Assembly (NCBI RefSeq): GCF_988242995.1
Contig: NZ_OZ547043.1
Direction: 5' to 3' (one strand)
DNA: 64,000 nt
Every line of letters starts with the position of its first letter. The stretch's first letter is position 1. The notes beneath the pieces were generated by a model that was not told where the DNA came from, searched no databases, and saw nothing but the letters and a program-made list of their open reading frames with translations. Shown in pieces: positions 2,256-44,659 of this stretch. The position numbers and the translations under genes were made by a program.

Positions 2256-2650
2256 GCAACGACACACCATTTAATGCGTTGTGGCAACGAATGCTGGCGC
2301 GTGGCTGGACGCCGATCAGTGAATCCCGTCTCGACGACTGGCTTACGCAAGCGCCAGACGGCGTGGTGTTATTAAGCAGTGACCCGAAACGCACGCCAGA
2401 AGTCAGCGATAACCCGGTCATGATTGGCGAATTACTGCGCGAGTTTCCCGACTATACATGGCAGGTAGCGATTGCTGACCTTGAGCAGAGCGAAGCCATC
2501 GGCGATCGCTTTGGCGTCTTTCGCTTTCCCGCCACATTAGTATTTACCGGCGGAAACTATCGCGGCGTGCTGAATGGTATTCACCCGTGGGCGGAACTGA
2601 TAAACCTGATGCGCGGACTTGTCGAACCGCAGCAGGAGCGTGCCTCATGA
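2252..2650 (+). CDS. hyaE: hydrogenase 1 operon chaperone-like protein
   Basis: 132 aa ORF, ATGA overlap with hyaD. Confidence 0.9.
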
Positions 2651-3504
2651 GCGAAACTTTTTTCCATCTGCTGGGGCCAGGAACGCAACCGAACGATGAC
2701 AGTTTCAGCATGAATCCACTGCCGATCACCTGTCGGGTGAATGGTGAACCGAGTATGGCGGCCCTGGAGCAATGTGCTCACAGCCCGCAGGTGATTGCGC
2801 TGTTAAACGAGTTACAACATCAACTAAGCGAACGCCAGCCGGCGCTGGGTGAGGTACTGGCAGTCGATCTGTTAAATCTCAACGCCGACGATCGTCACTT
2901 TATCAATACGCTTCTCGGGGAAGGGGAAGTGTCAGTGCGCATTCAGCAGGCTGATGGTAGTGAAAGTGAAATTCAGGAGGCGATCTTCTGCGGATTATGG
3001 CGGGTGCGCAGACGTCGCGGCGACAAGTTGCTGGAGGACAAACTGGAGGCTGGCTGCGCGCCGCTGGCATTGTGGCAGGCGGCAACGCAAAACGTCTTGC
3101 CGACAGATTCGCTGTTACCGCCGCCCATTGATGGCCTGATGAATGGCCTACCGTTGGCGCATGAGTTACTGGCGCATGTACGTAACCCCGACGCGCAGCC
3201 GCACAGCATTAATCTGACGCAATTACCCATCAGCGAGGCTGATCGGCTTTTTCTCTCACGTCTCTGTGGGCCGGGAAATATTCAGATTCGCACCATTGGC
3301 TACGGCGAGAGCTATATCAACGCCACGGGGTTACGCCATGTCTGGCATTTACGCTGCACGGACACCTTAAAAGGCCCGTTACTTGAGAGTTATGAAATCT
3401 GCCCGATACCGGAAGTGGTTCTGGCAGCGCCAGAAGATTTGGTCGACTCAGCGCAGCGGCTTAGCGAGGTATGTCAGTGGCTGGCGGAAGGGGCACCTTC
3501 GTAA
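2647..3504 (+). CDS. hyaF: hydrogenase 1 operon protein HyaF
   Basis: 285 aa from ATG at 2647 (MSETFFHLL); the longer track ORF from 2587 overlaps hyaE and is not used. Confidence 0.9.
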
Positions 3505-3637
3505 AAAGACGGTAAGTATCGCTTTCAGGCTTATGAATATCGCAATCGGCGAATACCTCTGGTCGTAGAGTTTCAGGATAAAGAGGGAGATCTACCATTA
3601 ACGGGTTATTTTTCTCTCTTCGCCTACAGGAGTGCGC

Positions 3638-5182
3638 ATGTGGGATGTCATTGATTTATCGCGCTGGCAGTTTGCTCTGACCGCGCTGTATCACTTTTTA
3701 TTTGTACCCCTTACCCTGGGGCTGATTTTTTTGCTGGCTATCATGGAAACCATTTACGTGGTCACCGGCAAAACAATCTACCGCGATATGACGCGCTTCT
3801 GGGGTAAGCTCTTCGGTATCAACTTTGCTCTTGGCGTGGCTACCGGCCTGACCATGGAGTTTCAGTTTGGTACTAACTGGTCATTCTATTCCAACTATGT
3901 GGGCGATATTTTTGGCGCACCGCTGGCGATGGAAGCATTAATGGCCTTCTTCCTCGAATCCACTTTTGTCGGGCTGTTCTTCTTCGGCTGGCAACGGCTG
4001 AATAAATACCAGCACCTGCTGGTGACGTGGCTGGTGGCGTTCGGTTCAAATCTCTCTGCGTTGTGGATATTGAATGCCAACGGTTGGATGCAATACCCGA
4101 CCGGTGCGCATTTTGATATCGACACCCTTCGTATGGAAATGACCAGCTTCAGCGAGCTGGTCTTTAACCCGGTCAGCCAGGTGAAATTTGTGCACACCGT
4201 AATGGCGGGCTACGTGACTGGGGCCATGTTTATTATGGCGATCAGCGCCTGGTATTTACTGCGCGGACGGGAGCGCGATGTCGCATTACGCTCGTTTGCC
4301 ATCGGTTCCGTCTTCGGTACTCTGGCGATTATCGGCACGCTGCAACTCGGAGACAGTTCTGCGTATGAAGTCGCGCAAGTACAACCGGTAAAACTGGCGG
4401 CGATGGAAGGGGAATGGCAAACGGAACCTGCACCTGCACCGTTCCATGTGGTTGCCTGGCCGGAACAGGATCAAGAGCGTAACGCCTTTGCTATCAAAAT
4501 TCCCGCGCTGCTAGGGATCCTCGCCACTCACTCATTAGATAAGCCCGTGCCGGGTCTGAAGAATTTGATGGCTGAAACCTACCCACGCTTGCAACGCGGA
4601 CGTATGGCCTGGCTGTTAATGCAGGAAATATCGCAAGGCAATCGTGAGCCGCATGTGTTGCAGGCATTTCGGGAGTTGGAAGGCGACCTGGGTTACGGCA
4701 TGTTGCTCTCCCGCTATGCGCCGGATATGAACCATGTCACAGCTGCACAGTACCAGGCGGCGATGCGTGGCGCGATACCTCAGGTTGCGCCGGTATTCTG
4801 GAGTTTCCGCATCATGGTGGGCTGTGGTTCTCTGCTGCTACTGGTGATGCTGATTGCGCTTGTCCAGACGCTGCGTGGCAAAATTGACCAGCATCGCTGG
4901 GTGCTGAAAATGGCGCTCTGGAGTTTGCCGCTGCCGTGGATTGCGATTGAAGCCGGGTGGTTTATGACCGAGTTTGGTCGTCAGCCGTGGGCGATACAGG
5001 ACATCTTACCGACATACTCCGCGCACTCCGCTTTAACCACAGGACAACTGGCTTTCTCACTGATCATGATCGTAGGGCTTTACACCCTGTTCTTAATCGC
5101 CGAAGTCTACCTGATGCAGAAATATGCCCGTCTGGGGCCGAGCGCGATGCAGAGTGAACAACCGACGCAGCAACAGGGGTAA
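3638..5182 (+). CDS. appC: cytochrome bd-II ubiquinol oxidase subunit I
   Basis: 514 aa from ATG 3638 ([12 protein letters not shown]); track ORF begins at an upstream GTG. Confidence 0.95.
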
Positions 5183-28798: not shown

Positions 28799-30639
<1,841 letters not shown>

Positions 30640-30666
30640 ATCCTTTTCAGCCGCGTAATGGCTTGT

Positions 30667-30684
30667 TTGCAAAGCGGATGCCAG
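30667..30684 (-). promoter_or_regulatory. sigma54 (-24/-12) promoter of rut operon
   Basis: Minus strand reads CTGGCATCCGCTTTGCAA = TGGCAT-N5-TTGCA, ~25 nt upstream of rutA ATG. Confidence 0.6.
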
Positions 30685-30747
30685 TTTTTAAAAAGTGAAT
30701 GTTATTAATGTGTTAATGTTAAGTTGTCTAAAATATCTGGAAAAAAG

Positions 30748-30763
30748 TGGACTAAACGGTCAA
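30748..30763. promoter_or_regulatory. candidate RutR operator
   Basis: tggactaaacggtcaa resembles the TTGACCAnnTGGTCAA palindrome in rutA-rutR intergenic region. Confidence 0.4.
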
Positions 30764-30869
30764 AACAGTTGCACATAAAACATGCATCCGTGCGCGATGA
30801 AAGTGCAGAAGGTCGAGGCCGGGCAGGGGTTTTGCTATCCTGTTGCCAATCTACAAGAGGGGAGAGCGC

Positions 30870-31508
30870 ATGACGCAAGGCGCAGTGAAAACAACGGGTA
30901 AACGTTCGCGCGCAGTGAGCGCGAAGAAAAAAGCGATTCTTAGCGCAGCACTGGACACTTTTTCACAATTCGGTTTTCACGGCACAAGGCTGGAGCAGAT
31001 CGCAGAGTTGGCAGGCGTTTCAAAAACCAATCTGCTGTATTACTTCCCGTCAAAAGAGGCGCTGTATATAGCCGTACTGCGGCAGATTCTCGATATCTGG
31101 CTGGCACCGTTAAAAGCGTTTCGTGAAGATTTCGCCCCGCTGGCGGCGATCAAAGAGTACATCCGTCTGAAGCTGGAAGTCTCACGCGATTATCCGCAGG
31201 CTTCGCGCCTGTTCTGTATGGAGATGCTGGCAGGCGCGCCGTTGTTAATGGATGAACTGACGGGCGATTTGAAGGCATTAATTGATGAGAAATCGGCGCT
31301 GATTGCCGGTTGGGTCAAAAGCGGCAAACTCGCGCCGATTGACCCGCAGCATTTGATTTTTATGATTTGGGCTTCCACTCAACATTACGCCGATTTCGCC
31401 CCTCAGGTGGAGGCGGTGACAGGCGCGACGTTGCGCGATGAGGTATTTTTCAATCAAACGGTTGAAAACGTGCAGCGGATTATTATTGAGGGGATTCGAC
31501 CACGTTAA
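30870..31508 (+). CDS. rutR: TetR-family repressor RutR
   Basis: 212 aa from ATG 30870 (MTQGAVKTTGK), HTH region. Confidence 0.92.
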   Translation: MTQGAVKTTGKRSRAVSAKKKAILSAALDTFSQFGFHGTRLEQIAELAGVSKTNLLYYFPSKEALYIAVLRQILDIWLAPLKAFREDFAPLAAIKEYIRLKLEVSRDYPQASRLFCMEMLAGAPLLMDELTGDLKALIDEKSALIAGWVKSGKLAPIDPQHLIFMIWASTQHYADFAPQVEAVTGATLRDEVFFNQTVENVQRIIIEGIRPR

Positions 31509-31512
31509 AGAT

Positions 31513-31540
31513 GCCGGAGGAGGTTGTAACATCCTCCGGC
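31513..31540. terminator. bidirectional hairpin between convergent rutR and putA
   Basis: gccggaggaggttgtaacatcctccggc. Confidence 0.55.
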
Positions 31541-31547
31541 TTCCTGC

Positions 31548-34500
31548 TTAACCGATCGTCATTAAACTGGCGTTACCGCCAGCGGCAGCGGTATTCACAC
31601 TCAGCGAACGCTCGATATACAGTCGTTCCAGCAGGATATTGCTTTCGCCACGGGCAAAACCCTGCACCGAAACAATTGCGCCATCCCGCGCGGCAACTGC
31701 TTCACACAATGCGCGAAGCTGATCCGAATCACCGTGGAAGATCACCGCATCAAACGGTTGAGCTGTTATATTTTCCGCTTTCGCCAGTTGAATACGTTCG
31801 CTGACTGCCGATGGCAATGCCTTCACTAACTGACGATGCAGCGCGTCATCCGGCCACAGCACCTGGCTGCCCACCGCCAGCACGGCGGCGAGCTGAGTCA
31901 GCGCATCCTGCTCATCATCCGCAATACACAACACGCGCTCGCGCGGCAGCAGCGTCCAGGTGTTGCGTTCACCCGTCGGCCCTGGCAGCAATCGTTGTGT
32001 TCCTGCCTGCGCCAGCTCGCCATATTGCGTACATAACGCCTGCAATTCTGGACGGTTTGCCGCCCATTCCCGCAGTGCATTTAGCGGCTGAGTCAATGCG
32101 GCTTTCAACTGCGCATCGACCGGATACTCTGCATCCTGACGCGCGAGCGTCACTGCCAGTGCACTTTCCGGGCGATTCGCCAGCAGACGGTAGAGATAGA
32201 GCGGACCGCCTGCTTTCGGCCCGGTGCCGGACAACCCTTCGCCGCCGAATGGCTGCACCCCGACCACTGCGCCCACCATATTACGGTTAACGTACAGGTT
32301 ACCGACATGGGCCGAGCCAGTGACCTGGGCGATGGTTTCATCAATGCGCGTATGGACGCCAAGCGTCAGACCATAACCGGAAGCGTTAATTTGCTCGATC
32401 AGCTCCGGCAGCTGGTTACGGTTATAACGCACCACATGCAGCACCGGACCAAAGACCTCTTTTTGCAATTCGGCAAAGTCATCCAGTTCAATCAGCGTCG
32501 GGGCGACAAAGGTGCCGCTTTGCCATTCACGGGCATCTTCACTGTTTTCCCGCACTGCCTGGAACACCGGACGGCCTTTACTACGCATAGTCTGAATATG
32601 ACGCTCAATATTGGCTTTCGCTTCGCTATCAATCACCGGACCGATATCGGTGGTCAGGCGACCAGGATTACCCATCCGGCATTCGGCCATTGCGCCGCGC
32701 AGCATTTTCAACGTGTGGTCGGCAATCTCATCTTGCAGGCACAGCACGCGCAGTGCCGAACAACGCTGGCCCGCACTGTCGAACGCCGAGGCCAGCACAT
32801 CTATTACTACTTGTTCGGTCAGGGCGGAGGAGTCGACAATCATCGCGTTCATACCGCCGGTTTCCGCGATGAGCGGAATAGGGCGACCCTGAGCGTCGAG
32901 GCGGCTGGCGATATTGCGTTGCAGTAACGTAGCGACTTCGGTTGAACCGGTAAACATCACCCCGCGCACGCGATCATCACCCGTCAGTTGCGCGCCCACG
33001 GTTTCCCCCCGACCTGGCAGCAATTGCACCACGCCTGGCGGTACACCCGCCTCCACCAAAATGGCAATCCCTTGCGCGGCAATCAGCGGCGTTTGTTCTG
33101 CCGGTTTTGCCAGTACGCTGTTACCTGCCGCCAGTGCGGCAGCGATCTGCCCGGTGAAAATCGCCAGCGGGAAGTTCCACGGACTGATACATACCACAGG
33201 CCCTAATGGACGGTGGGTTTCGTTAGCGAAATCATCCCGCACCTGTCCGGCGTAGTAGTGGAGAAAATCGACCGCTTCGCGCACTTCGGCAATGGCGTTA
33301 CTGAAGGTTTTTCCGGCCTCACGCACCAGAATACCAATCAGTTGCTGCATCTGGCTTTCCATCAGCACGGCAGCGCGATGCAAAATTGCCGCGCGTTCAG
33401 CCGGAGGCGTGGCAAACCAGATTGGTGCGTTATTAACCGCACTTTCCAGCGCCTGTTCTACTTCACTCGGCGTGGCTTCGCGCACATAGCCCACAATATC
33501 TTTCGGCTCTGCCGGGTTAATAACGGGCGACATCTCACCAGCCGCGACCGATTGTTCCAGCATTGGCAAGGCCTGCCATTTTTGCAGTGCACTATTGAGC
33601 AGGGCAGAAGAGAGCGATGCCAGACGGTGTTCGTTAGCGAGATCCAGCCCTGCCGAGTTGTCGCGCCCGTGACCGTAAAGATCGCGCGGCAGGGGAATTT
33701 TCGGATGCGGTAATCCAGTTTGCCCTTCCTGTTGCGCCAGTTTTTCTACAGCAGTGACCGGATCGGCGACCAGTTCATCCAGGGGCAAAGAGGTGTCAGC
33801 AATACGGTTAACAAACGAGGTGTTAGCACCGTTTTCCAGCAGGCGACGCACCAGATACGCCAGCAGCGTTTCATGGGTACCGACAGGAGCATAAATACGA
33901 CACGGACGGTTAAGTTTGCCGTCGGCAACTTTCCCGGTGACCTGCTCATACAGTGGCTCGCCCATACCGTGCAGGCACTGGAACTCGTACTGACCCGGGT
34001 AGTAGTTCTGACCCGCCAGTTGATAAATTGCCGCCAGCGTATGGGCGTTATGCGTTGCGAACTGCGGGTAGATTAGATTCGGCACCGCCAGCAGCTTTTT
34101 CGCACAGGCGAGATATGAAACGTCGGTATACACCTTGCGGGTATAAACCGGATAACCTTCAAGGCCGTCCATCTGCGCGCGCTTGATTTCACTATCCCAG
34201 TACGCGCCTTTCACCAGGCGAATCATCAGACGGCGACGGCTGCGGGTGGCGAGATCAATCAGGTAATCAATCACCAGTGGGCAGCGTTTTTGATAAGCCT
34301 GAATAACAAAACCGATGCCGTTCCAGCCTGCCAGTTCCGGCTCGAAACAGAGTTTTTCCAGCAGATCGAGGGAGATCTCCAGACGATCGGCCTCTTCGGC
34401 ATCGATGTTAATACCAATATCGTACTGACGCGCCAGCAGGGTGAGTGATTTCAGACGTGGGTAAAGCTCTTCCATTACCCGGTCATACTGGGCGCGGCTG

Positions 34501-35510
34501 TAACGCGGATGCAGCGCCGACAGCTTGATTGAAATGCCCGGACCTTCATAGATGCCACGACCATTGGACGCTTTACCAATGGCGTGAATCGCCTGCTGAT
34601 AGGAAACCATATACGCCTGTGCATCTGCGGCGGTCAGCGCGGCTTCGCCCAGCATATCGTAGGAGTAACGGAAACCTTTCTCTTCCAGCTTGCGGGCATT
34701 GGCTAACGCTTCCGCGATGGTTTCGCCAGTGACGAACTGCTCGCCCATCAGGCGCATCGCCATATCCACACCTTTGCGGATCAGCGGTTCACCGCTCTTA
34801 CCGATAATGCGGTTCAGCGAGCGGGAGAGGCTGGCTTCGTTATGGGTGGAAACCAGTTTGCCGGTAAACAGCAGCCCCCAGGTGGCGGCATTAACAAACA
34901 GGGACGGGCTACGACCAATGTGTGACTGCCAGTTACCGTTGCTGATTTTGTCGCGAATTAACGCATCACGGGTGGCTTTGTCGGGAATACGCAACAACGC
35001 TTCTGCCAGACACATCAGCGCCACGCCTTCCTGCGATGACAGCGAAAACTCCTGCAATAACCCCTGGACCATACCTGCGCGACCACTGGCATTTTTTTGA
35101 TTACGCAGTTTATCGGCCAGTTGATATGCCAGTTTATGCGCCTGTTCAGCAACTGGCTGCGGCAGGCGGGCTTGTTCCAGCAGCATAGAAACCGCTTCGG
35201 TTTCCGGGCGGCGATAGGCAGCGGTGATAGCTGCGCGGGAAACCGACTGGGGCAAAATTTGCTCGGCAAAGTCGAGGAATGGCTGGTGTGGTTCCTCTGC
35301 CGGAGTGGGTGCTTCATCGCTCTCATTGGCAGCGCCAGAAAGCAGCGCAGGTAGCTCCGGAAGAGTATCGCTGTTTTCCAGTTGTTCAAGATAAGAAAAA
35401 ATCGCCTGCTTAATTAACCAGTGTGGCGTGCGATCGATACGTGTCGCGGCAGACTTAATACGCTCACGCGTCGCGTCGTCCAGCTTAACCCCCATGGTGG
35501 TGGTTCCCAT
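31548..35510 (-). CDS. putA: bifunctional proline dehydrogenase / P5C dehydrogenase / repressor PutA
   Basis: 1320 aa from ATG at 35510 (MGTTTMGVKLDD), N-terminal RHH DNA-binding region. Confidence 0.95.
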   Translation of the reverse strand: MGTTTMGVKLDDATRERIKSAATRIDRTPHWLIKQAIFSYLEQLENSDTLPELPALLSGAANESDEAPTPAEEPHQPFLDFAEQILPQSVSRAAITAAYRRPETEAVSMLLEQARLPQPVAEQAHKLAYQLADKLRNQKNASGRAGMVQGLLQEFSLSSQEGVALMCLAEALLRIPDKATRDALIRDKISNGNWQSHIGRSPSLFVNAATWGLLFTGKLVSTHNEASLSRSLNRIIGKSGEPLIRKGVDMAMRLMGEQFVTGETIAEALANARKLEEKGFRYSYDMLGEAALTAADAQAYMVSYQQAIHAIGKASNGRGIYEGPGISIKLSALHPRYSRAQYDRVMEELYPRLKSLTLLARQYDIGINIDAEEADRLEISLDLLEKLCFEPELAGWNGIGFVIQAYQKRCPLVIDYLIDLATRSRRRLMIRLVKGAYWDSEIKRAQMDGLEGYPVYTRKVYTDVSYLACAKKLLAVPNLIYPQFATHNAHTLAAIYQLAGQNYYPGQYEFQCLHGMGEPLYEQVTGKVADGKLNRPCRIYAPVGTHETLLAYLVRRLLENGANTSFVNRIADTSLPLDELVADPVTAVEKLAQQEGQTGLPHPKIPLPRDLYGHGRDNSAGLDLANEHRLASLSSALLNSALQKWQALPMLEQSVAAGEMSPVINPAEPKDIVGYVREATPSEVEQALESAVNNAPIWFATPPAERAAILHRAAVLMESQMQQLIGILVREAGKTFSNAIAEVREAVDFLHYYAGQVRDDFANETHRPLGPVVCISPWNFPLAIFTGQIAAALAAGNSVLAKPAEQTPLIAAQGIAILVEAGVPPGVVQLLPGRGETVGAQLTGDDRVRGVMFTGSTEVATLLQRNIASRLDAQGRPIPLIAETGGMNAMIVDSSALTEQVVIDVLASAFDSAGQRCSALRVLCLQDEIADHTLKMLRGAMAECRMGNPGRLTTDIGPVIDSEAKANIERHIQTMRSKGRPVFQAVRENSEDAREWQSGTFVAPTLIELDDFAELQKEVFGPVLHVVRYNRNQLPELIEQINASGYGLTLGVHTRIDETIAQVTGSAHVGNLYVNRNMVGAVVGVQPFGGEGLSGTGPKAGGPLYLYRLLANRPESALAVTLARQDAEYPVDAQLKAALTQPLNALREWAANRPELQALCTQYGELAQAGTQRLLPGPTGERNTWTLLPRERVLCIADDEQDALTQLAAVLAVGSQVLWPDDALHRQLVKALPSAVSERIQLAKAENITAQPFDAVIFHGDSDQLRALCEAVAARDGAIVSVQGFARGESNILLERLYIERSLSVNTAAAGGNASLMTIG

Positions 35511-35534
35511 GCCATTACTCCTGTTGTTCTGAAA

Positions 35535-35745
35535 GGTGCAACTTAACGTTATCGTGAAATATCCATGATGTTGCAACTTTGTGCAACCATGTTAAATGTG
35601 ACCTGCGTAGCAAGCTTAAAAATGAATGAAATGTTAATAAAAGAAATCGATATGACAGGGATTAAAAAAATAACTCAGACTTTTTCTCTGCGGCAGTTAA
35701 CATTTTTGAAAGGTGCAACCGCAAAAAATGTGAGAGAGTGCAACC
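35535..35745. promoter_or_regulatory. put control region with five GTTGCA PutA operator motifs
   Basis: ggtgcaac 35535, gttgcaac 35570, gtgcaacc 35581, ggtgcaacc 35712, gtgcaacc 35738, all in divergent putA-putP intergenic DNA. Confidence 0.6.
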
Positions 35746-35932
35746 TGATGAAAAATAGTGTCGCTGAGCACTAAAATTTAATGTAAATGGTGTGTTAAAT
35801 CGATTGTGAATAACCAGCGCTTCCGGCAGGATACGGTCGCCCTGGTAAAACATAAACTCTGCTACCCCGTTCCGGTGGCAGATATAACGGCAAGTTTCGA
35901 CATTGCCGATAATAATTTTTTGGAGACTTTAG

Positions 35933-37441
<1,509 letters not shown>

Positions 37442-37485
37442 GGGAAGGCGTTTTACCGAAAATCCCACGTCATAATCAGAAGCAG

Positions 37486-37521
37486 GCAGAGGGCAATCAG
37501 TGATTGCCCTCTGCGTTTTTT
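37486..37521 (+). terminator. rho-independent terminator after putP
   Basis: gcagagggcaatcagtgattgccctctgc stem followed by tttttt. Confidence 0.7.
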
Positions 37522-37660
37522 CTCAAAATATTTTTACATTTTCTCATCATTATCACTACATTCCGCTTGTATTTTTCTTTGCCGTAATGATAATCGCTAT
37601 CACTGCGATTTACTTTTCTTTGCATAGATTGACTCAGAAAAACGTTTAAGGGTGGGTGGC

Positions 37661-38491
37661 ATGTTTGTTCCATTTCTCATTATGTTGCGCGAAGGACTTG
37701 AAGCCGCGCTGATTGTCAGTTTGATTGCCAGCTATCTTAAGCGTACCCAGCGAGGCCGATGGATTGGTGTGATGTGGATTGGCGTGTTGCTTGCCGCTGC
37801 GTTGTGCCTGGGCTTGGGTATCTTCATTAACGAAACCACCGGCGAATTTCCGCAAAAAGAACAGGAACTGTTTGAAGGTATCGTGGCGGTGATCGCCGTG
37901 GTGATCCTTACCTGGATGGTTTTCTGGATGCGCAAAGTGTCGCGCAACGTCAAAGTACAACTGGAGCAGGCAGTCGATAGCGCATTGCAGCGTGGAAATC
38001 ATCATGGCTGGGCGCTGGTGATGATGGTCTTTTTTGCCGTTGCAAGGGAGGGGCTGGAGTCGGTCTTTTTCCTGCTGGCGGCGTTTCAACAAGATGTCGG
38101 GATTTGGCCGCCGCTGGGTGCAATGCTCGGTCTTGCTACAGCCGTGGTGCTTGGCTTCCTGCTCTACTGGGGCGGTATTCGCCTCAATCTTGGTGCATTT
38201 TTTAAATGGACCAGTCTGTTTATTCTCTTCGTCGCCGCTGGGCTGGCAGCTGGTGCCATTCGCGCATTTCATGAAGCCGGATTGTGGAACCACTTTCAGG
38301 AAATCGCCTTCGATATGAGCGCGGTGCTCTCAACTCACTCGCTGTTTGGCACGCTGATGGAAGGGATTTTTGGCTATCAGGAAGCGCCAAGTGTCAGCGA
38401 AGTCGCCGTCTGGTTTATTTATCTCATCCCAGCGCTGGTGGCATTTGCGCTGCCGCCACGTGCAGGGGCGACAGCGTCTCGCTCCGCGTAA
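37661..38491 (+). CDS. efeU: ferrous iron permease EfeU (intact)
   Basis: 276 aa uninterrupted ORF from ATG 37661 (MFVPFLIMLREGLEA) with REGLE motifs. Confidence 0.85.
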   Translation: MFVPFLIMLREGLEAALIVSLIASYLKRTQRGRWIGVMWIGVLLAAALCLGLGIFINETTGEFPQKEQELFEGIVAVIAVVILTWMVFWMRKVSRNVKVQLEQAVDSALQRGNHHGWALVMMVFFAVAREGLESVFFLLAAFQQDVGIWPPLGAMLGLATAVVLGFLLYWGGIRLNLGAFFKWTSLFILFVAAGLAAGAIRAFHEAGLWNHFQEIAFDMSAVLSTHSLFGTLMEGIFGYQEAPSVSEVAVWFIYLIPALVAFALPPRAGATASRSA

Positions 38492-38548
38492 CAAATACGA
38501 CGCAAACTCTTGCTTAGTTACAACATACTTTAAAGGGATAGTCTCGTC

Positions 38549-39676
38549 ATGACCATTAACTTCCGCCGTAACGCATTGCAGTTGAGCGTGGCTGCGCTGT
38601 TCTCTTCTGCTTTTATGGCTAACGCCGCCGATATTCCGCAAGTCAAAGTCACCGTGACGGATAAGCAGTGCGAACCGATGACCATTACGGTTAACGCCGG
38701 GAAAACACAGTTCATTATTCAGAACCACAGCCAGAAGGCGCTGGAGTGGGAGATCCTCAAAGGCGTGATGGTGGTGGAAGAGCGAGAAAATATCGCCCCT
38801 GGCTTTAGCCAGAAAATGACGGCGAATTTACAGCCTGGCGAATACGATATGACCTGCGGTCTGCTGACTAACCCGAAAGGGAAGTTGATCGTTAAAGGTG
38901 AAGCAACGGCGGATGCGGCGCAAAGCGATGCGCTGTTAAGTCTTGGTGGTGCAATTACTGCATATAAAGCGTATGTCATGGCGGAAACCACGCAGCTGGT
39001 GACCGACACCAAAGCCTTTACCGACGCTATTAAAGCAGGCGATATCGAAAAAGCAAAAGCACTGTATGCGCCGACGCGCCAGCACTATGAGCGCATTGAA
39101 CCGATTGCTGAACTGTTCTCCGATCTGGATGGTAGCATTGACGCCCGTGAAGATGATTACGAGCAAAAAGCCGCCGATCCAAAATTCACCGGTTTCCACC
39201 GTCTGGAAAAAGCATTGTTTGGCGATAACACCACCAAAGGGATGGATAAGTATGCCGACCAGCTTTATACCGATGTGGTCGATTTGCAAAAACGCATCAG
39301 TGAACTGGCTTTCCCTCCGTCAAAAGTGGTCGGCGGTGCAGCCGGACTGATTGAGGAAGTGGCAGCCAGCAAAATCAGCGGTGAAGAAGATCGCTACAGC
39401 CACACCGATCTGTGGGATTTCCAGGCTAACGTTGAAGGCTCGCAGAAAATTGTCGATCTGCTGCGTCCACAACTGCAAAAGGCCAACCCGGAACTGCTGG
39501 CAAAAGTCGATGCCAATTTCAAAAAGGTCGATACCATTCTGGCGAAATACCGTACTAAAGACGGTTTTGAAACCTACGACAAATTGACCGATGCTGACCG
39601 TAATGCGCTGAAAGGGCCGATTACTGCGCTGGCGGAAGATCTGGCGCAACTTCGCGGTGTGCTGGGGCTGGATTAA
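38549..39676 (+). CDS. efeO: periplasmic iron-uptake protein EfeO
   Basis: 375 aa ORF with signal peptide. Confidence 0.93.
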
Positions 39677-39681
39677 GCGTT

Positions 39682-40953
39682 ATGCAGTATGAAGATGAAA
39701 ACGGCGTGAATGAACCGTCACGCCGACGTTTACTGAAAGGGATTGGTGCGCTGGCGCTGGCGGGAAGTTGTCCGGTCGCTCATGCACAAAAAACGCAAAG
39801 TGCACCGGGTACGCTTTCACCGGATGCACGCAATGAGAAACAGCTGTTTTATGGTGAGCATCAGGCAGGGATCCTGACGCCACAACAGGCCGCAATGATG
39901 CTGGTGGCGTTTGATGTGCTTGCCAGCGATAAAGCCGATCTTGAGCGGTTGTTTCGCTTGTTGACTCAGCGTTTTGCTTTTCTGACTCAGGGCGGAGCAG
40001 CACCAGAAACGCCAAATCCGCGCCTGCCACCACTCGATTCCGGCATTCTTGGCGGCTACATTGCGCCCGATAATCTCACCATCACATTATCGGTGGGCCA
40101 CTCATTGTTTGATGAGCGCTTTGGCCTTGCGTCGCAGATGCCGAAAAAGTTGCAGAAGATGACGCGTTTCCCCAACGACTCGCTTGATGCAGCATTATGT
40201 CATGGTGATGTGTTGCTACAAATTTGCGCCAACACCCAGGATACGGTGATCCATGCGCTGCGCGATATCATCAAACACACGCCGGATTTGCTCAGTGTGC
40301 GCTGGAAGCGGGAAGGGTTTATTTCCGATCACGCGGCGCGTAGTAAAGGCAAAGAGACGCCGATTAATTTGCTGGGTTTCAAAGACGGCACTGCCAATCC
40401 CGATAGCCAGAATGATAAGTTGATGCAAAAAGTGGTGTGGGTGACGGCAGATCAGCAGGAGCCTGCGTGGACAATCGGCGGCAGCTACCAGGCGGTGCGG
40501 TTGATTCAGTTTCGGGTGGAATTTTGGGACAGAACGCCGCTGAAAGAACAGCAGACGATATTTGGGCGTGATAAGCAAACCGGCGCGCCGCTGGGAATGC
40601 AGCATGAGCATGATGTTCCCGATTACGCCAGCGATCCGGAAGGGAAGGTGATTGCGCTGGACAGCCATATCCGGCTGGCGAATCCCCGCACGCCAGAGAG
40701 TGAGTCAAGTCTGATGCTGCGTCGTGGCTACAGTTATTCGTTGGGCGTCACCAACTCCGGACAACTGGATATGGGGCTACTGTTTGTCTGCTATCAACAC
40801 GATCTGGAAAAAGGCTTCCTGACAGTACAAAAAAGGCTCAATGGCGAAGCGCTGGAGGAATACGTTAAACCTATCGGCGGCGGTTATTTTTTTTCGCTGC
40901 CGGGAGTGAAGGACGCGAACGATTATCTCGGAAGCGCGTTATTACAGGTTTGA
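39682..40953 (+). CDS. efeB: Tat-exported DyP-type heme peroxidase EfeB
   Basis: 423 aa, twin-arginine signal [10 protein letters not shown]. Confidence 0.93.
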
Positions 40954-40959
40954 ACGACG

Positions 40960-41060
40960 CAAATATGCCCGATGCGCAGGTTTATCGGGCATGAGTTTTG
41001 TGCACAAATTATTAATCACTTGTAGGTCGGGTAAGGCGTTCACGCCGCATCCGGCAAGTT
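40960..41060. repeat. REP-type palindromic elements
   Basis: gcccgatgcgcaggtttatcgggc and tgtaggtcgggtaaggcgttcacgccgcatccggcaag after efeB. Confidence 0.5.
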
Positions 41061-41275
41061 TTTACCAGTACTGCGAATCCTGCTGAAAGCACACAGCTTT
41101 TTTCATCACTGTCATCACTCTGTCATCTTTCCAGCAGAAACTAATGTCACTGAAATGGGTGTTTATCGTTAAACACAAGTAAATATAATGTTGCAATGAA
41201 TGCGAGTTCTGTTGTAATTATTAAGTAGCAGCGGAAGTTCCCGGCAGTGATAGTCAGTCACTATGGAGATCGCGG

Positions 41276-42340
41276 ATGGTAACGTCCTGTACTGGACATG
41301 TTTTAGATAATCAGCGCGCCACCACTCGCGGAGATTTCTCCTCCGGTAGCAACTTCGTCACTTTGTATTTTCAACCTCATCCTTTCTTTTCATGTGTTAC
41401 CGACGCCGTAAACGGTGCGCGTAGCCGTTTTTCGGCATTTTATCCAAAAGCAAACTATGGCTTACAAGGAAGCCAACCCTCTGATGTTCGTGCGCATAAT
41501 CGCGCTGCCAACGGCGCGTGTGATGAATACAAACAACTCAAGGTGCTCTCCATGGGAAGACAAAAAGCAGTGATCAAAGCTCGTCGCGAGGCAAAACGTG
41601 TGCTGAGACGGGATTCGCGCAGCCATAAGCAGCGTGAAGAAGAATCGGTCACCTCGCTTGTGCAGATGAGCGGCGTAGAAGCCATTGGTATGGCCCGCGA
41701 CAGTCGCGATACCTCGCCCATCCTCGCGCGAAATGAAGCGCAATTGCACTATCTGAAGGCTATTGAGAGTAAGCAGCTGATATTCGCCACGGGCGAAGCC
41801 GGGTGCGGAAAAACCTGGATCAGCGCAGCAAAAGCGGCAGAGGCCCTGATACATAAGGATGTCGACAGGATTATCGTCACCCGTCCAGTTCTGCAAGCCG
41901 ATGAAGATCTTGGCTTCTTACCTGGAGATATCGCAGAAAAGTTTGCTCCCTATTTTCGTCCGGTCTACGACGTGCTGGTCCGGCGCTTAGGGGCTTCCTT
42001 TATGCAGTACTGCCTGCGACCGGAAATAGGGAAGGTGGAAATTGCGCCGTTCGCCTATATGCGTGGACGTACCTTTGAAAATGCAGTCGTCATTCTTGAC
42101 GAGGCGCAGAATGTGACTGCCGCGCAAATGAAAATGTTTTTAACCCGCCTCGGGGAGAACGTGACGGTTATCGTCAACGGTGATATCACGCAATGCGATT
42201 TGCCTCGCGGCGTGCGCTCCGGATTAAGTGACGCGCTGGAACGTTTCGAAGAAGATGAAATGGTCGGGATCGTCCGATTCGGTAAAGAGGATTGCGTACG
42301 TTCGGCACTTTGCCAACGTACGCTACATGCATACAGTTAA
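41276..42340 (+). CDS. phoH: phosphate-starvation-inducible ATPase PhoH
   Basis: 354 aa, Walker A GEAGCGKT; translation may start at a downstream Met. Confidence 0.9.
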   Translation: MVTSCTGHVLDNQRATTRGDFSSGSNFVTLYFQPHPFFSCVTDAVNGARSRFSAFYPKANYGLQGSQPSDVRAHNRAANGACDEYKQLKVLSMGRQKAVIKARREAKRVLRRDSRSHKQREEESVTSLVQMSGVEAIGMARDSRDTSPILARNEAQLHYLKAIESKQLIFATGEAGCGKTWISAAKAAEALIHKDVDRIIVTRPVLQADEDLGFLPGDIAEKFAPYFRPVYDVLVRRLGASFMQYCLRPEIGKVEIAPFAYMRGRTFENAVVILDEAQNVTAAQMKMFLTRLGENVTVIVNGDITQCDLPRGVRSGLSDALERFEEDEMVGIVRFGKEDCVRSALCQRTLHAYS

Positions 42341-42357
42341 GTGTATTATCGGTACAG

Positions 42358-42388
42358 AGCCCGGGCGAACCGGGCTTTGTTTTATTTC
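42358..42388 (+). terminator. rho-independent terminator after phoH
   Basis: agcccgggcgaaccgggct stem followed by T-rich run. Confidence 0.7.
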
Positions 42389-42902
42389 ATTAACAGCAAA
42401 GACTTTCACTTCAGGTTAACGTTCAGGGGGGCGACTTTGAGCGTGTTGATAAGCTGAAATGAATTCTGGTTTAGATACTCTTACCAGGCATTTTTCGTCA
42501 TAGCACCCGACCAGTGTAATGCCGCCAGCGCGGAGAGTTTTTTGCCTATCTTTTTCCAGCCATTCAACCTGTACAGGAGGTCTGGTGCCAATTTTGCGTA
42601 TGAGGTTTAATCAGCAATGGGCCATAATTTGACTGACTGATTAACACCGAATATATTCTCCTGATTTTATTTTTTAGGGATAATATTAAAAATATAAGGT
42701 TAATCTTAATTAATTCTTCAGCTAATATTGTGTGTTGTTATTTTTTGTGGACGGCAAGCCGCAATGGCAAAATAGGTATGGTTGTAATAATCAAAACATG
42801 ATACTAACTATATATAGATCGTTGAATTGTTGGCATGTAACTCGCTACAGCGAGTAGCGTTAGTAATGAAATATAATCAACATGGATAGGTGAAGATTAA
42901 TT

Positions 42903-43589
42903 ATGAGCTTTATGGTTTTTGTAACTTGTTTGACAATTGCATTTGTCGCCGGTTTTGCTGTTGCCAGAAAATTGACACTCCGAAAAGTTGCCTCATCGGT
43001 AATCATCACTAGATCGCAACCAGTCCCTTCCTCTGCAACTTCCCCTGCGGCTAAGGCGTCGACAAGGAGCTATACACCGCAGAAAACCTATCGTGACTCT
43101 CGTTGGCAAGAACGAGATGAGTTGTTCCAGGGAATGGTTGCCGAAGGTATTTTATTGGAAGGAAAAGAGTGGTTAATTACGCGTTGTGAAAAAATTTATT
43201 TTGATAATCTGGAGAAATGGTTTGGACATTATTGTCATATCCATTGCCAGGTCTCTCTGGGGCGCTTGATCAACTTTCCAGAACAACCCGAGTTTAGCGA
43301 AGAAGAAAGAAAGCGTTTCTTTGCAATTTATAATGGAATGGCAATGGATTATGTTCTGGTTTCAAAGAAGAACAATAAAATAGTCTGTGTTATTGAGCTG
43401 GATGATCCGAGTCATGAAAGGGCAGATCGCATTATTCGTGACCGTTGGTTGAATACGATTATGACTATTGCACGGGTGCCTTTTGTACGAGCTTCTGTCA
43501 CTAAATTGGATGAAATCCCTCCGGTCTGGGATACCCGTGACAAAATTCGCCCATTAGCCGCGGCGACAAAGGGTGAACCGTTGCATTAA
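42903..43589 (+). CDS. membrane-anchored protein with DUF2726 / restriction-endonuclease-like C-terminal domain (accessory)
   Basis: 228 aa; N-terminal hydrophobic helix (FMVFVTCLTIAFVAGFAV); C-terminal DYVLVSKKNNKIVCVIELDDPSH resembles DUF2726; AT-rich 5' region. Confidence 0.7.
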   Translation: MSFMVFVTCLTIAFVAGFAVARKLTLRKVASSVIITRSQPVPSSATSPAAKASTRSYTPQKTYRDSRWQERDELFQGMVAEGILLEGKEWLITRCEKIYFDNLEKWFGHYCHIHCQVSLGRLINFPEQPEFSEEERKRFFAIYNGMAMDYVLVSKKNNKIVCVIELDDPSHERADRIIRDRWLNTIMTIARVPFVRASVTKLDEIPPVWDTRDKIRPLAAATKGEPLH

Positions 43590-43595
43590 CTAAGT

Positions 43596-43674
43596 ACCCC
43601 GGTCGGGGCTCCTCATCCCCCCGGTGTGTGCAATATACGAAAAAAAAGCCCGTACTTTCGTACGAGCTCTTCTT
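43596..43674. repeat. left copy of serX 3'-flank repeat (part A), interrupted by IS200
   Basis: 79 bp nearly identical to 44488-44565. Confidence 0.8.
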
Positions 43675-44385
43675 GTGCACAGAAAACCCCCAGCTAGGCT
43701 GGGGGTTCCGGAAAGCTTTCAGCTTTGAGCCAGTTATTAAAACCCCTTTTGATTTGTTAAAACACCTTGCGGTCTGGCAACTGCAAGTGTCAAACAAGAA
43801 ATCAAAAGGGGGTCCCAATGGGGGACGAAAAGAGCTTAGCGCACACCCGCTGGAACTGTAAATATCACATAGTTTTTGCGCCGAAATACCGAAGACTGGC
43901 GTTTTACGGAGAGAAGCGTAGGGCGATAGGCAGTATTTTGAGAAAGCTGTGTGAGTGGAAAAGCGTACGGATTCTGGAAGCAGAGTGCTGCGCAGATCAT
44001 ATCCATATGCTTGTGGAAATCCCACCCAAAATGAGCGTATCCGGCTTTATGGGATATCTGAAAGGGAAAAGCAGTCTGATGCTTTACGAGCAGTTTGGGG
44101 ATTTGAAATTCAAATACAGAAACAGGGAGTTCTGGTGCCGAGGGTACTATGTCGATACGGTGGGTAAGAACACGGCGAAGATACAGGACTACATAAAGCA
44201 CCAGCTTGAAGAGGATAAAATGGGAGAGCAGTTATCGATTCCCTATCCGGGCAGCCCGTTTACGGGCCGTAAGTAACGAAGTTGGATGCAAATGTCAGAT
44301 CGTGTGCGCCTGTTAGGGCGCGGCTGGTAACAGAGCCTTACAGGCGCATTTGAAAAACCTCCGGCTATGCCGGAGGATATTTATT
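43675..44385 (+). mobile_element. IS200-family insertion sequence (~711 bp, approximate ends)
   Basis: Left hairpin cccccagctaggctggggg, RBS-sequestering stem ccccttttgattt/aaatcaaaaggggg, tnpA, right hairpin cctccggctatgccggagg. Confidence 0.85.
43818..44276 (+). CDS. tnpA: IS200 transposase TnpA (HUH Y1 transposase)
   Basis: 152 aa from ATG 43818 (MGDEKSLAHTRWNCKYHIVFAPKYRR); HiH motif in ADHIHMLV, catalytic Tyr region GYYVDTVG. Confidence 0.9.
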   Translation: MGDEKSLAHTRWNCKYHIVFAPKYRRLAFYGEKRRAIGSILRKLCEWKSVRILEAECCADHIHMLVEIPPKMSVSGFMGYLKGKSSLMLYEQFGDLKFKYRNREFWCRGYYVDTVGKNTAKIQDYIKHQLEEDKMGEQLSIPYPGSPFTGRK

Positions 44386-44410
44386 TAAATATGGCGGTGA
44401 GGGGGGGATT
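44386..44410. repeat. left copy of serX 3' end repeat (part B): duplicate of last 19 nt of serX plus junction
   Basis: tttaaatatggcggtgagggggggatt vs tttaaagatggcggtgagggggggatt at 44564-44590. Confidence 0.8.
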
Positions 44411-44487
44411 GACTCGCTTCGCTCGCCCTGCGGGCAGCCCGCTCACTGCGTTCACGGTCTGTCCAACTGGCTGTCGCCAGTTGTCGA

Positions 44488-44590
44488 ACCCCGGTCGGGG
44501 CTTCTCATCCCCCGGTGTGTGCAATATACGAAAAAAAAGCCCGTACCTTCGTACGAGCTCTTCTTTAAAGATGGCGGTGAGGGGGGGATT
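44488..44590. repeat. right copy of ~104 bp direct repeat (serX 3' flank plus tRNA 3' end)
   Basis: Direct repeat of 43596-43674 + 44386-44410 with ~5 mismatches. Confidence 0.8.
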
Positions 44591-44659
44591 CGAACCCCCG
44601 ATACGTTGCCGTATACACACTTTCCAGGCGTGCTCCTTCAGCCACTCGGACACCTCACC
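44572..44659 (-). tRNA. serX: tRNA-Ser (anticodon GGA)
   Basis: 88 nt; minus strand reads GGTGAGGTGTCCGAGTGGCTGAAGGAGCACGCCTGGAAAGTGTG...GGGGGTTCGAATCCCCCCCTCACCGCCA with 7-bp acceptor stem, long variable arm, CCA encoded. Confidence 0.9.

Follow-up and report, generated by a model that had tools for sequence, protein, structure and literature searches.

IS200 is the smallest autonomous bacterial insertion sequence and is notoriously inactive, to the point of being nearly dormant. In Salmonella, the element measures 707 bp and the controls on its expression have been mapped: a left-end terminator at nt 12-34 acts in both directions and stops about 85% of incoming transcripts, and a stem at nt 69-138 sequesters the Shine-Dalgarno (SD) sequence and lowers translation about 20-fold, with art200 and Hfq repressing it further (PMC4513863, PMC5435999). 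The Y125F form of the Salmonella IS200 transposase, TnpA, is its catalytically dead mutant control (PMC4513863).

The biochemically characterized relatives are IS608 of Helicobacter pylori and ISDra2 of Deinococcus radiodurans, whose Y1 HUH TnpA proteins are homologous to that of IS200 (E of ~1e-16 to 1e-19 to the chains PDB 2a6m, 2vhg, and 2xm3, with the HUH motif and the Tyr aligned). They share with IS200 the subterminal hairpins, insertion 3' of a fixed short sequence, the absence of target duplication, and a top strand on the lagging-strand template. Unlike IS200, they also carry tnpB and their hairpins are imperfect, and their targets are TTAC and TTGAT, respectively, in contrast to the TTNTT behind a hairpin that we found in IS200 relatives. 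In IS608, the tetranucleotide 5' of the left-end (LE) hairpin foot recognizes the target TTAC (PMC5027513). Our literature search did not find any biochemistry of IS200 TnpA, and the peel-and-paste scheme and guide pairing discussed below for IS200 are carried over from IS608 and ISDra2.

We compared with these systems a locus within a window of 64 kb, by which we mean the whole stretch of DNA analyzed. It holds a complete 711-bp IS200 of the IS200/IS605 family, lying between a DUF2726 gene and serX on an E. coli-like chromosome, an assignment in which we are highly confident. The element is already known and this is an ordinary copy of it, in the same length class as the Salmonella element. 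Its features, in window coordinates, are as follows.

43675..44385, plus strand: complete IS200 element, 711 bp, from the full-length match to other E. coli copies
From 43675, plus strand: element start GTGCACAGAAAA, followed by the left hairpin, read from the sequence
43681..43686, plus strand: A-run (GAAAAC context) directly 5' of the left hairpin, the proposed left guide
43685..43707, plus strand: left-end perfect hairpin AACCCCCAGC-TAG-GCTGGGGGTT, element nt 11-33, from the DNA fold
43712..43726, plus strand: small hairpin AAAGCT-TTC-AGCTTT, from the Rfam STnc490 consensus structure and the minimum free energy (MFE) fold
43737..43826, minus strand: putative art200 antisense RNA, in sequence that is 100% IS200, with coordinates inferred from the Salmonella description (PMC4513863)
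43743..43811, plus strand: 5'-UTR stem-loop with a 13-bp lower stem, element nt 69-137, from the MFE and centroid folds
43818..44276, plus strand: tnpA, encoding a 152-aa Y1 (HUH) transposase, ATG at 43818, stop ending at 44276, from Pfam and NCBIfam
44358..44376, plus strand: right-end perfect hairpin CCTCCGGC-TAT-GCCGGAGG, from the DNA fold and the terminator scan
44377..44385, plus strand: right-end tail ATATTTATT, ending in TTATT, the same TTNTT form as the target

A preliminary description of this DNA, made from its letters, had placed an IS200 at 43675-44385, and both its coordinates and all of the features it listed were borne out. To fix the ends, we aligned the window copy with nine further full IS200 copies, drawn from eleven E. 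coli loci and each with flanks of its own. Each of the nine is 711 bp long, starts with GTGCACAG, and ends with ATATTTATT, and the window copy has this length and these same first and last bases. Tandem pairs fix both ends as well: in E. coli Ch1 and in Y. pestis, they read ...GGAGGATATTTATT|GTGC... where a right end meets a left end. The two ends of the window IS200 are not inverted copies of each other, and terminal inverted repeats are absent.

The window copy differs from eight E. coli copies of its own subtype at 0 to 3 positions and from three copies of the 'IS200C' subtype at 23 to 27, the length being 711 bp throughout. Two copies, one between yedP and yodD in E. coli TUM1886 and one adjoining add in E. 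coli Ch1, are identical to it (0/711 differences). A search with the hairpin cores found a single IS200 copy within the 64-kb window. Among 5426 complete E. coli genomes, an IS200 copy with at least 80% coverage was present in 2063, at up to 35 places per genome. Judged from sequence comparison, the identical copies at many loci show that IS200 has moved recently on the evolutionary scale.

Compared with the IS200 of Salmonella and E. coli, nothing substantial differs in the window copy, which is of an E. coli subtype 23 to 30 nt away from the 'IS200C' subtype. They are alike in their single 152-aa TnpA with Y125, in the terminator hairpin and SD stem at the published positions, in the right-end hairpin, and in lacking both inverted terminal repeats and target duplication. 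IS1541 of Y. pestis is collinear with the window copy, with 87% nucleotide identity over the full length and a 152-aa TnpA. It has the same hairpin sequences at both ends, the ATATTTATT tail, and terminator-type left flanks, but its first 12 nt are GTGCCCAG instead of GTGCACAG. The copy number of IS1541 in Y. pestis is far higher, and tandem pairs are common there.

The only open reading frame in the element is the 152-aa one, and tnpB is absent. Its product matched Pfam PF01797 (Y1_Tnp) with an E value of 7.9e-37 and NCBIfam transpos_IS200 (NF033573) with 144 bits against a cut-off of 55, was identical to RefSeq WP_000502112.1, and aligned to the Sulfolobus and IS608 structures 2ec2, 2f4f, and 2a6m with the motifs conserved. 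H61 and H63 lie within DHIHM, and Y125 and Q129 within QDYIKHQ (Tyr-x3-Gln). The complete TnpA frame claimed in the preliminary description was thus confirmed with its catalytic residues in place, and alignment revealed neither truncation nor frameshift, with the HUH histidines and Y125 kept. In Edwardsiella and Brenneria, the reading frames of the IS200 copies are truncated or chimeric, which makes "intact" a real statement for the window copy. The further claim that the element is potentially mobile holds structurally only, as IS200 is nearly dormant.

The two end hairpins and the stem occluding the ribosome-binding site, which the preliminary description had also proposed, are all present and match the published IS200 anatomy. 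The left hairpin core CCCCCAGCTAGGCTGGGGG (43687-43705) occurs once in the window and in 0 of 100 shuffles, and the hairpin folds as DNA with -11.7 kcal/mol (z = -4.35). By analogy with the family, it may also be recognized by TnpA on single-stranded DNA. In the leader RNA, the lower stem pairs CCCCTTTTGATTT (43743-43755) with AAATCAAAAGGGG (43799-43811), and the predicted fold buries the SD sequence AAGGGGGT (43806-43813), which ends 4 nt before the ATG. Folding of the 5' leader gave this SD-burying stem in both the MFE and centroid structures, with -70.6 kcal/mol and z = -5.16; the z scores of the hairpins and the leader, all between -4.3 and -5.2, are relative to dinucleotide shuffles.

In an alignment of 15 leaders from different taxa, the leader was the most conserved non-coding part of the element. 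The SD stem was kept throughout this alignment, with compensatory changes at several pairs of the lower stem (for example, C-G to U-A, U-A to C-G, and G-C to A-U). The small hairpin at 43712..43726 fared differently, its region forming a different and weaker 4-bp helix in the alignment fold (columns 41-44 with 53-56). The tnpA promoter is weak and undefined, and it is for this reason uninformative that our promoter scan found no consensus sigma-70 promoter for tnpA or art200. The published start of tnpA transcription, at about nt 40, lies near the small hairpin.

Rfam STnc490, the family for the IS200 leader/antisense region, matched end to end at 43685-43808, with 146 bits against a gathering score of 56. 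The match is on the plus, tnpA-sense strand and takes in the left-end terminator hairpin, whereas STnc490/art200 has been described as an antisense RNA (PMC4513863, PMC5435999); the strand and extent of the family are therefore not simply those of art200.

Downstream of the reading frame, the 3' region before the right hairpin is structured. The right hairpin CCTCCGGCTATGCCGGAGG (44358-44376) is found at one place in the window and nowhere in shuffles, folds as DNA with z = -4.34, and was flagged as terminator-like on both the plus and minus strands. A Vibrio copy keeps this hairpin by a compensatory change from CCTCC/GGAGG to CCACC/GGTGG.

All of the distant relatives were fetched by an exact match to the 19-mer of the left hairpin, which biases the sample toward close left ends, and the invariance of the left hairpin among them is built in because this 19-mer was the search pattern. 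Among the matches listed, the 19-mer stands in IS200-like left ends of very distant metagenome-assembled genomes (MAGs), often at contig ends, from Bacillota, Peptococcaceae, Mailhella/Desulfovibrio, Elusimicrobia, Saccharibacteria, and Oxalobacter. Such a distribution means that either the hairpin is extremely constrained or horizontal spread has been wide. The same 19-mer also occurs in another repeated element, ...CCCGTTAAAGAAATA[19-mer]ATGCTTATT, at many contig ends and with no IS200-type sequence after it; this element was seen in the Ruminococcus MAG RUG14215 (loci L086-L096) and also in loci L030 and L033.

The conservation of the leader bears on whether the element still moves. It could be intact yet effectively immobile, and be kept as a domesticated RNA locus (for its 5'-UTR sRNA or art200) or for its terminators. 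This would agree with the leader being the most conserved non-coding part across taxa, with the terminator-like character of both end hairpins, with the regulation of Salmonella genes by tnpA 5'-UTR sRNAs (PMC4513863, PMC5435999), and with IS200 transposition being rarely detectable. Nevertheless, transposition must have been fairly recent to leave identical copies at many different loci and as many as 35 places in one genome. The TnpA frame is intact with its catalytic residues, and the tandem copies and same-site reuse described below point to ongoing activity. We consider domestication unlikely, though it has some standing, and prefer to regard the copy as a structurally intact, if nearly dormant, IS200.

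The element is flanked by the following features.

43596-43674: terminal partial RtT-type unit forming the left flank, with A-run, hairpin, and TCTTCTT
43640..43674, plus strand: target, consisting of A-run, hairpin, and TCTTCTT, a bidirectional intrinsic terminator, terminator-like on the plus strand in the scan
44386..44565, minus strand: RtT-type repeat unit, 180 bp, with a tRNA-like 3' end (CCA), a body, and a terminator copy
44572..44659, minus strand: serX, tRNA-Ser(GGA), from ARAGORN, with an Rfam tRNA score of 53.8 bits

The window reads cttctt|GTGCACAG at the left junction and ATATTTATT|taaatatgg at the right; with T residues on either side, their placement is ambiguous by 2 nt, and the junctions may be drawn up to 2 nt leftward. 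In K-12, the unoccupied junctions of the repeat units downstream of serX read cttctt|TAAATATGG and cttctt|TAAATATGGCGG, and the window reads cttctt, then the IS, then taaatatggcgg. Because the window flanks, once joined, equal the K-12 junction, this is a simple and precise insertion, in which the target was not duplicated and the flanks lost no bases. The preliminary description had taken the element to mark a recent rearrangement at this locus, which is too strong a claim for flanks that join into an unoccupied K-12 junction. It had also placed the insertion between ttctt and taaa(t/g) of the serX flank; the junctions were correct, but the right flank is an RtT-type unit and not serX.

The hairpin of the target (43647-43668) has one mismatch, and the IS lies immediately 3' of its TTCTT. 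With only 5 uninterrupted pairs, it makes a weaker terminator than most IS200 targets. It is a second copy of the terminator next to serX (44509-44565), and its two directions serve the DUF2726 ORF (plus strand) and the serX/RtT transcript (minus strand).

On the right, the IS abuts the distal end of the 180-bp RtT-type unit, a repeat supported by the direct repeats D1-D3. This unit scored 41.1 bits against Rfam RtT (RF00391), below the gathering score of 45, and RefSeq labels the same sequence 'RtT sRNA' in E. coli 2022H048 (locus L001) and K-12 BW25113 (locus L003); it is RtT-type and not a proven RtT member. In every such unit, a terminator copy follows the tRNA-like 3' end, ...CCGCCA. The window has one unit plus the terminal partial unit, PRO_A-1401-6M-A has none (L002, position 3470), and K-12 BW25113 has four (L003, 2636-3380). 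The strains with zero and four units are without an IS at this place. An integrated island, with the duplicated serX 3' end and terminator as its attachment sites, was considered and ruled out: the duplication is the 180-bp RtT-type tandem unit, present 0, 1, or 4 times in other E. coli independently of the IS. On the other side of the element, the DUF2726 ORF (228 aa, 42903-43589, plus strand) lies between phoH and the serX region. K-12 carries a pga-dgcT-IS3-ycdU block at this position, which makes it a variable region next to a tRNA gene.

The plus strand of the window is leading-strand sequence (GC skew +0.034, Chi 13:3, KOPS 10:0), which puts the top strand of the element on the lagging-strand template. 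As one copy, it is consistent with the rule for the IS200/IS605 family (PMC5027513) rather than a statistical test of it.

We scanned GTDB, with one genome per species, for the 19-nt core of the left hairpin. The scan gave at least 120 loci, those listed coming from Yersinia, Vibrio, Brenneria, Dickeya, Edwardsiella, Oxalobacter, Mailhella/Desulfovibrio, Bacillota, Elusimicrobia, and Saccharibacteria. When the E. coli copies were added, the listed loci yielded 108 distinct left flanks from many phyla, and it is to these matches listed plus E. coli that all of the following counts refer. At least four of the last six nucleotides were T in 106/108 flanks, and positions -1 and -2 were T in 99%. 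The last five nucleotides were TTTTT in 60 flanks, TTCTT in 10, TTGTT in 10, and TTATT in 9, so that the TTCTT of the window shares second place with TTGTT. The last 40 nt folded at -10 kcal/mol or below in 95% of the flanks, compared with 21% of 2000 control positions, and a T-rich end combined with a stem of at least 5 bp was found in 72/108 flanks and 14/2000 controls.

A GC hairpin and T-run precede each of the nine E. coli copies, and in E. coli examples the IS lies about 50 bp past the stop codon of a co-oriented gene (nuoN, brnQ, glgP, ompX or mepM). With its TTCTT behind a hairpin, the site in the window is thus typical of those that IS200 occupies. That the nucleotide position is fixed points to insertion directed by sequence and not to mere tolerance at harmless sites, although the enrichment at terminators could partly reflect selection for harmless sites rather than targeting alone.

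Nearly all of the 19 left-end variants among the matches listed retain the A-run 5' of the left hairpin. A-runs stand 5' of both hairpins and T-rich sequence at both cleavage sites, and neither varied among the relatives recovered. By analogy with IS608, the A-run 5' of the left hairpin is likely a guide that pairs with the T-rich target.

The target pattern itself is not new, since a 2025-26 preprint found terminator-like sequences enriched upstream of IS200/IS605 elements. The preprint reads this enrichment as limiting transposase expression, not as targeting. For an explicit published statement that IS200/IS1541 targets terminators, the literature searched gave only this preprint and incidental mentions. 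We lean toward the view that IS200-group elements actively recognize intrinsic terminators as single-stranded hairpin-plus-T-tract targets, beyond merely surviving there. In such recognition, the conserved A-run would pair with TTNTT, and the right end, made up of its hairpin and ATATTTATT, would mimic the target and so give rise to tandem copies.

Head-to-tail pairs of IS200/IS1541 were seen in E. coli Ch1 (L125, 1-1011) and in Y. pestis NCTC5923 (L098, L099, and L101). In these pairs, the second copy begins directly after the ATATTTATT of the first, so that the right end looks like the element's own target.

The full arrangement of the window was found in only 2/5426 complete E. coli genomes, and its left junction in 14/5426. 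In three other strains, the very same nucleotide position (gagctcttctt|) is occupied by an IS200 of the 'IS200C' subtype, with 23 to 27 differences from the window copy, as follows.

L001 (2022H048), 3477-4187: IS200C copy at the same position
L132 (GmM077), 2571-3281: IS200C copy at the same position
L133 (DA33137), 2571-3281: IS200C copy at the same position

The GmM077 and DA33137 loci are without the RtT unit. In isolate 362, the paralogous serW/RtT site (clpA-serW-infA) holds a copy of the window's subtype with 3 differences (L134, 2579-3289). From these sequences, the simplest reading is that of a preferred site hit by independent insertions, and the serX and serW sites together suggest either that this is a hot spot open to reuse or that the repeated flanks allow exchange. 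As a third part of the active recognition proposed above, the serX/serW RtT terminators would be reusable hot spots for different IS200 subtypes, which would enter them independently.

Exchange would mean that the copy arrived by homologous recombination, either from an occupied serX site in another lineage or by gene conversion from serW/RtT. In favor of this, the same nucleotide position is occupied in 2022H048, GmM077, and DA33137, a copy of the window's subtype, 3 differences away, sits at serW in isolate 362, and the window copy is flanked by repeated sequence, some 80 bp of it to the left and 180 bp to the right. However, every occupied serX site found has a copy of the other subtype, 23 to 27 differences away, the immediate flanks of the window copy are of the serX type with several differences from the serW flanks, and independent insertion fits the strong target preference. 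Arrival by recombination is, in our judgment, quite improbable. It is very improbable indeed that the IS was at this locus ancestrally and has been precisely excised wherever the site is empty: IS200/IS605 excision is scarless and leaves a site that looks never occupied (PMC5027513), but the full arrangement occurs in only 2 and the left junction in only 14 of the 5426 genomes, the occupied sites carry two subtypes 3-4% apart, and the window copy is identical to copies elsewhere, unlike an old resident copy.

We favor independent insertion into a preferred terminator site. By analogy with IS608 and ISDra2, TnpA acting on single-stranded DNA would bind both subterminal top-strand hairpins, Tyr125 would cut and a single-stranded circle would be released, and the circle would be pasted 3' of a short target without duplicating it. 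That target is here, as in nearly all of the relatives examined, the T-rich end (TTNTT) of an intrinsic terminator, with the A-run as the likely guide. Once in place, the element would produce very little TnpA, as the left hairpin would terminate incoming transcription, the 13-bp stem would bury the SD sequence, and art200, where expressed, would add to the repression together with Hfq.

For the host, the insertion splits the terminal RtT-type repeat from the terminator of the serX operon. The right-end hairpin, which is followed by TTTTT when read on the minus strand, probably provides a substitute terminator, and the insertion is therefore likely to be close to neutral.

For the annotation of the window, the finding is minor: one more nearly dormant IS copy at a harmless intergenic site. 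The insertion is useful as a lineage marker given the rarity of the full arrangement (2/5426 complete E. coli genomes). Nevertheless, the serX/serW RtT terminators are apparently reusable IS200 sites, and shared occupancy is thus not proof of shared ancestry. More generally, the TTNTT-after-hairpin rule across phyla offers a testable target model for IS200.

The origin of the window itself was looked at through the 13.6-kb putA-efe-phoH stretch (30000-43600), whose best identity among the 5426 complete E. coli genomes, a collection without Shigella, was 98.7%, with soil and water isolates as the best hits. By this similarity, the source of the window may be an Escherichia lineage that has been poorly sampled, or Shigella.
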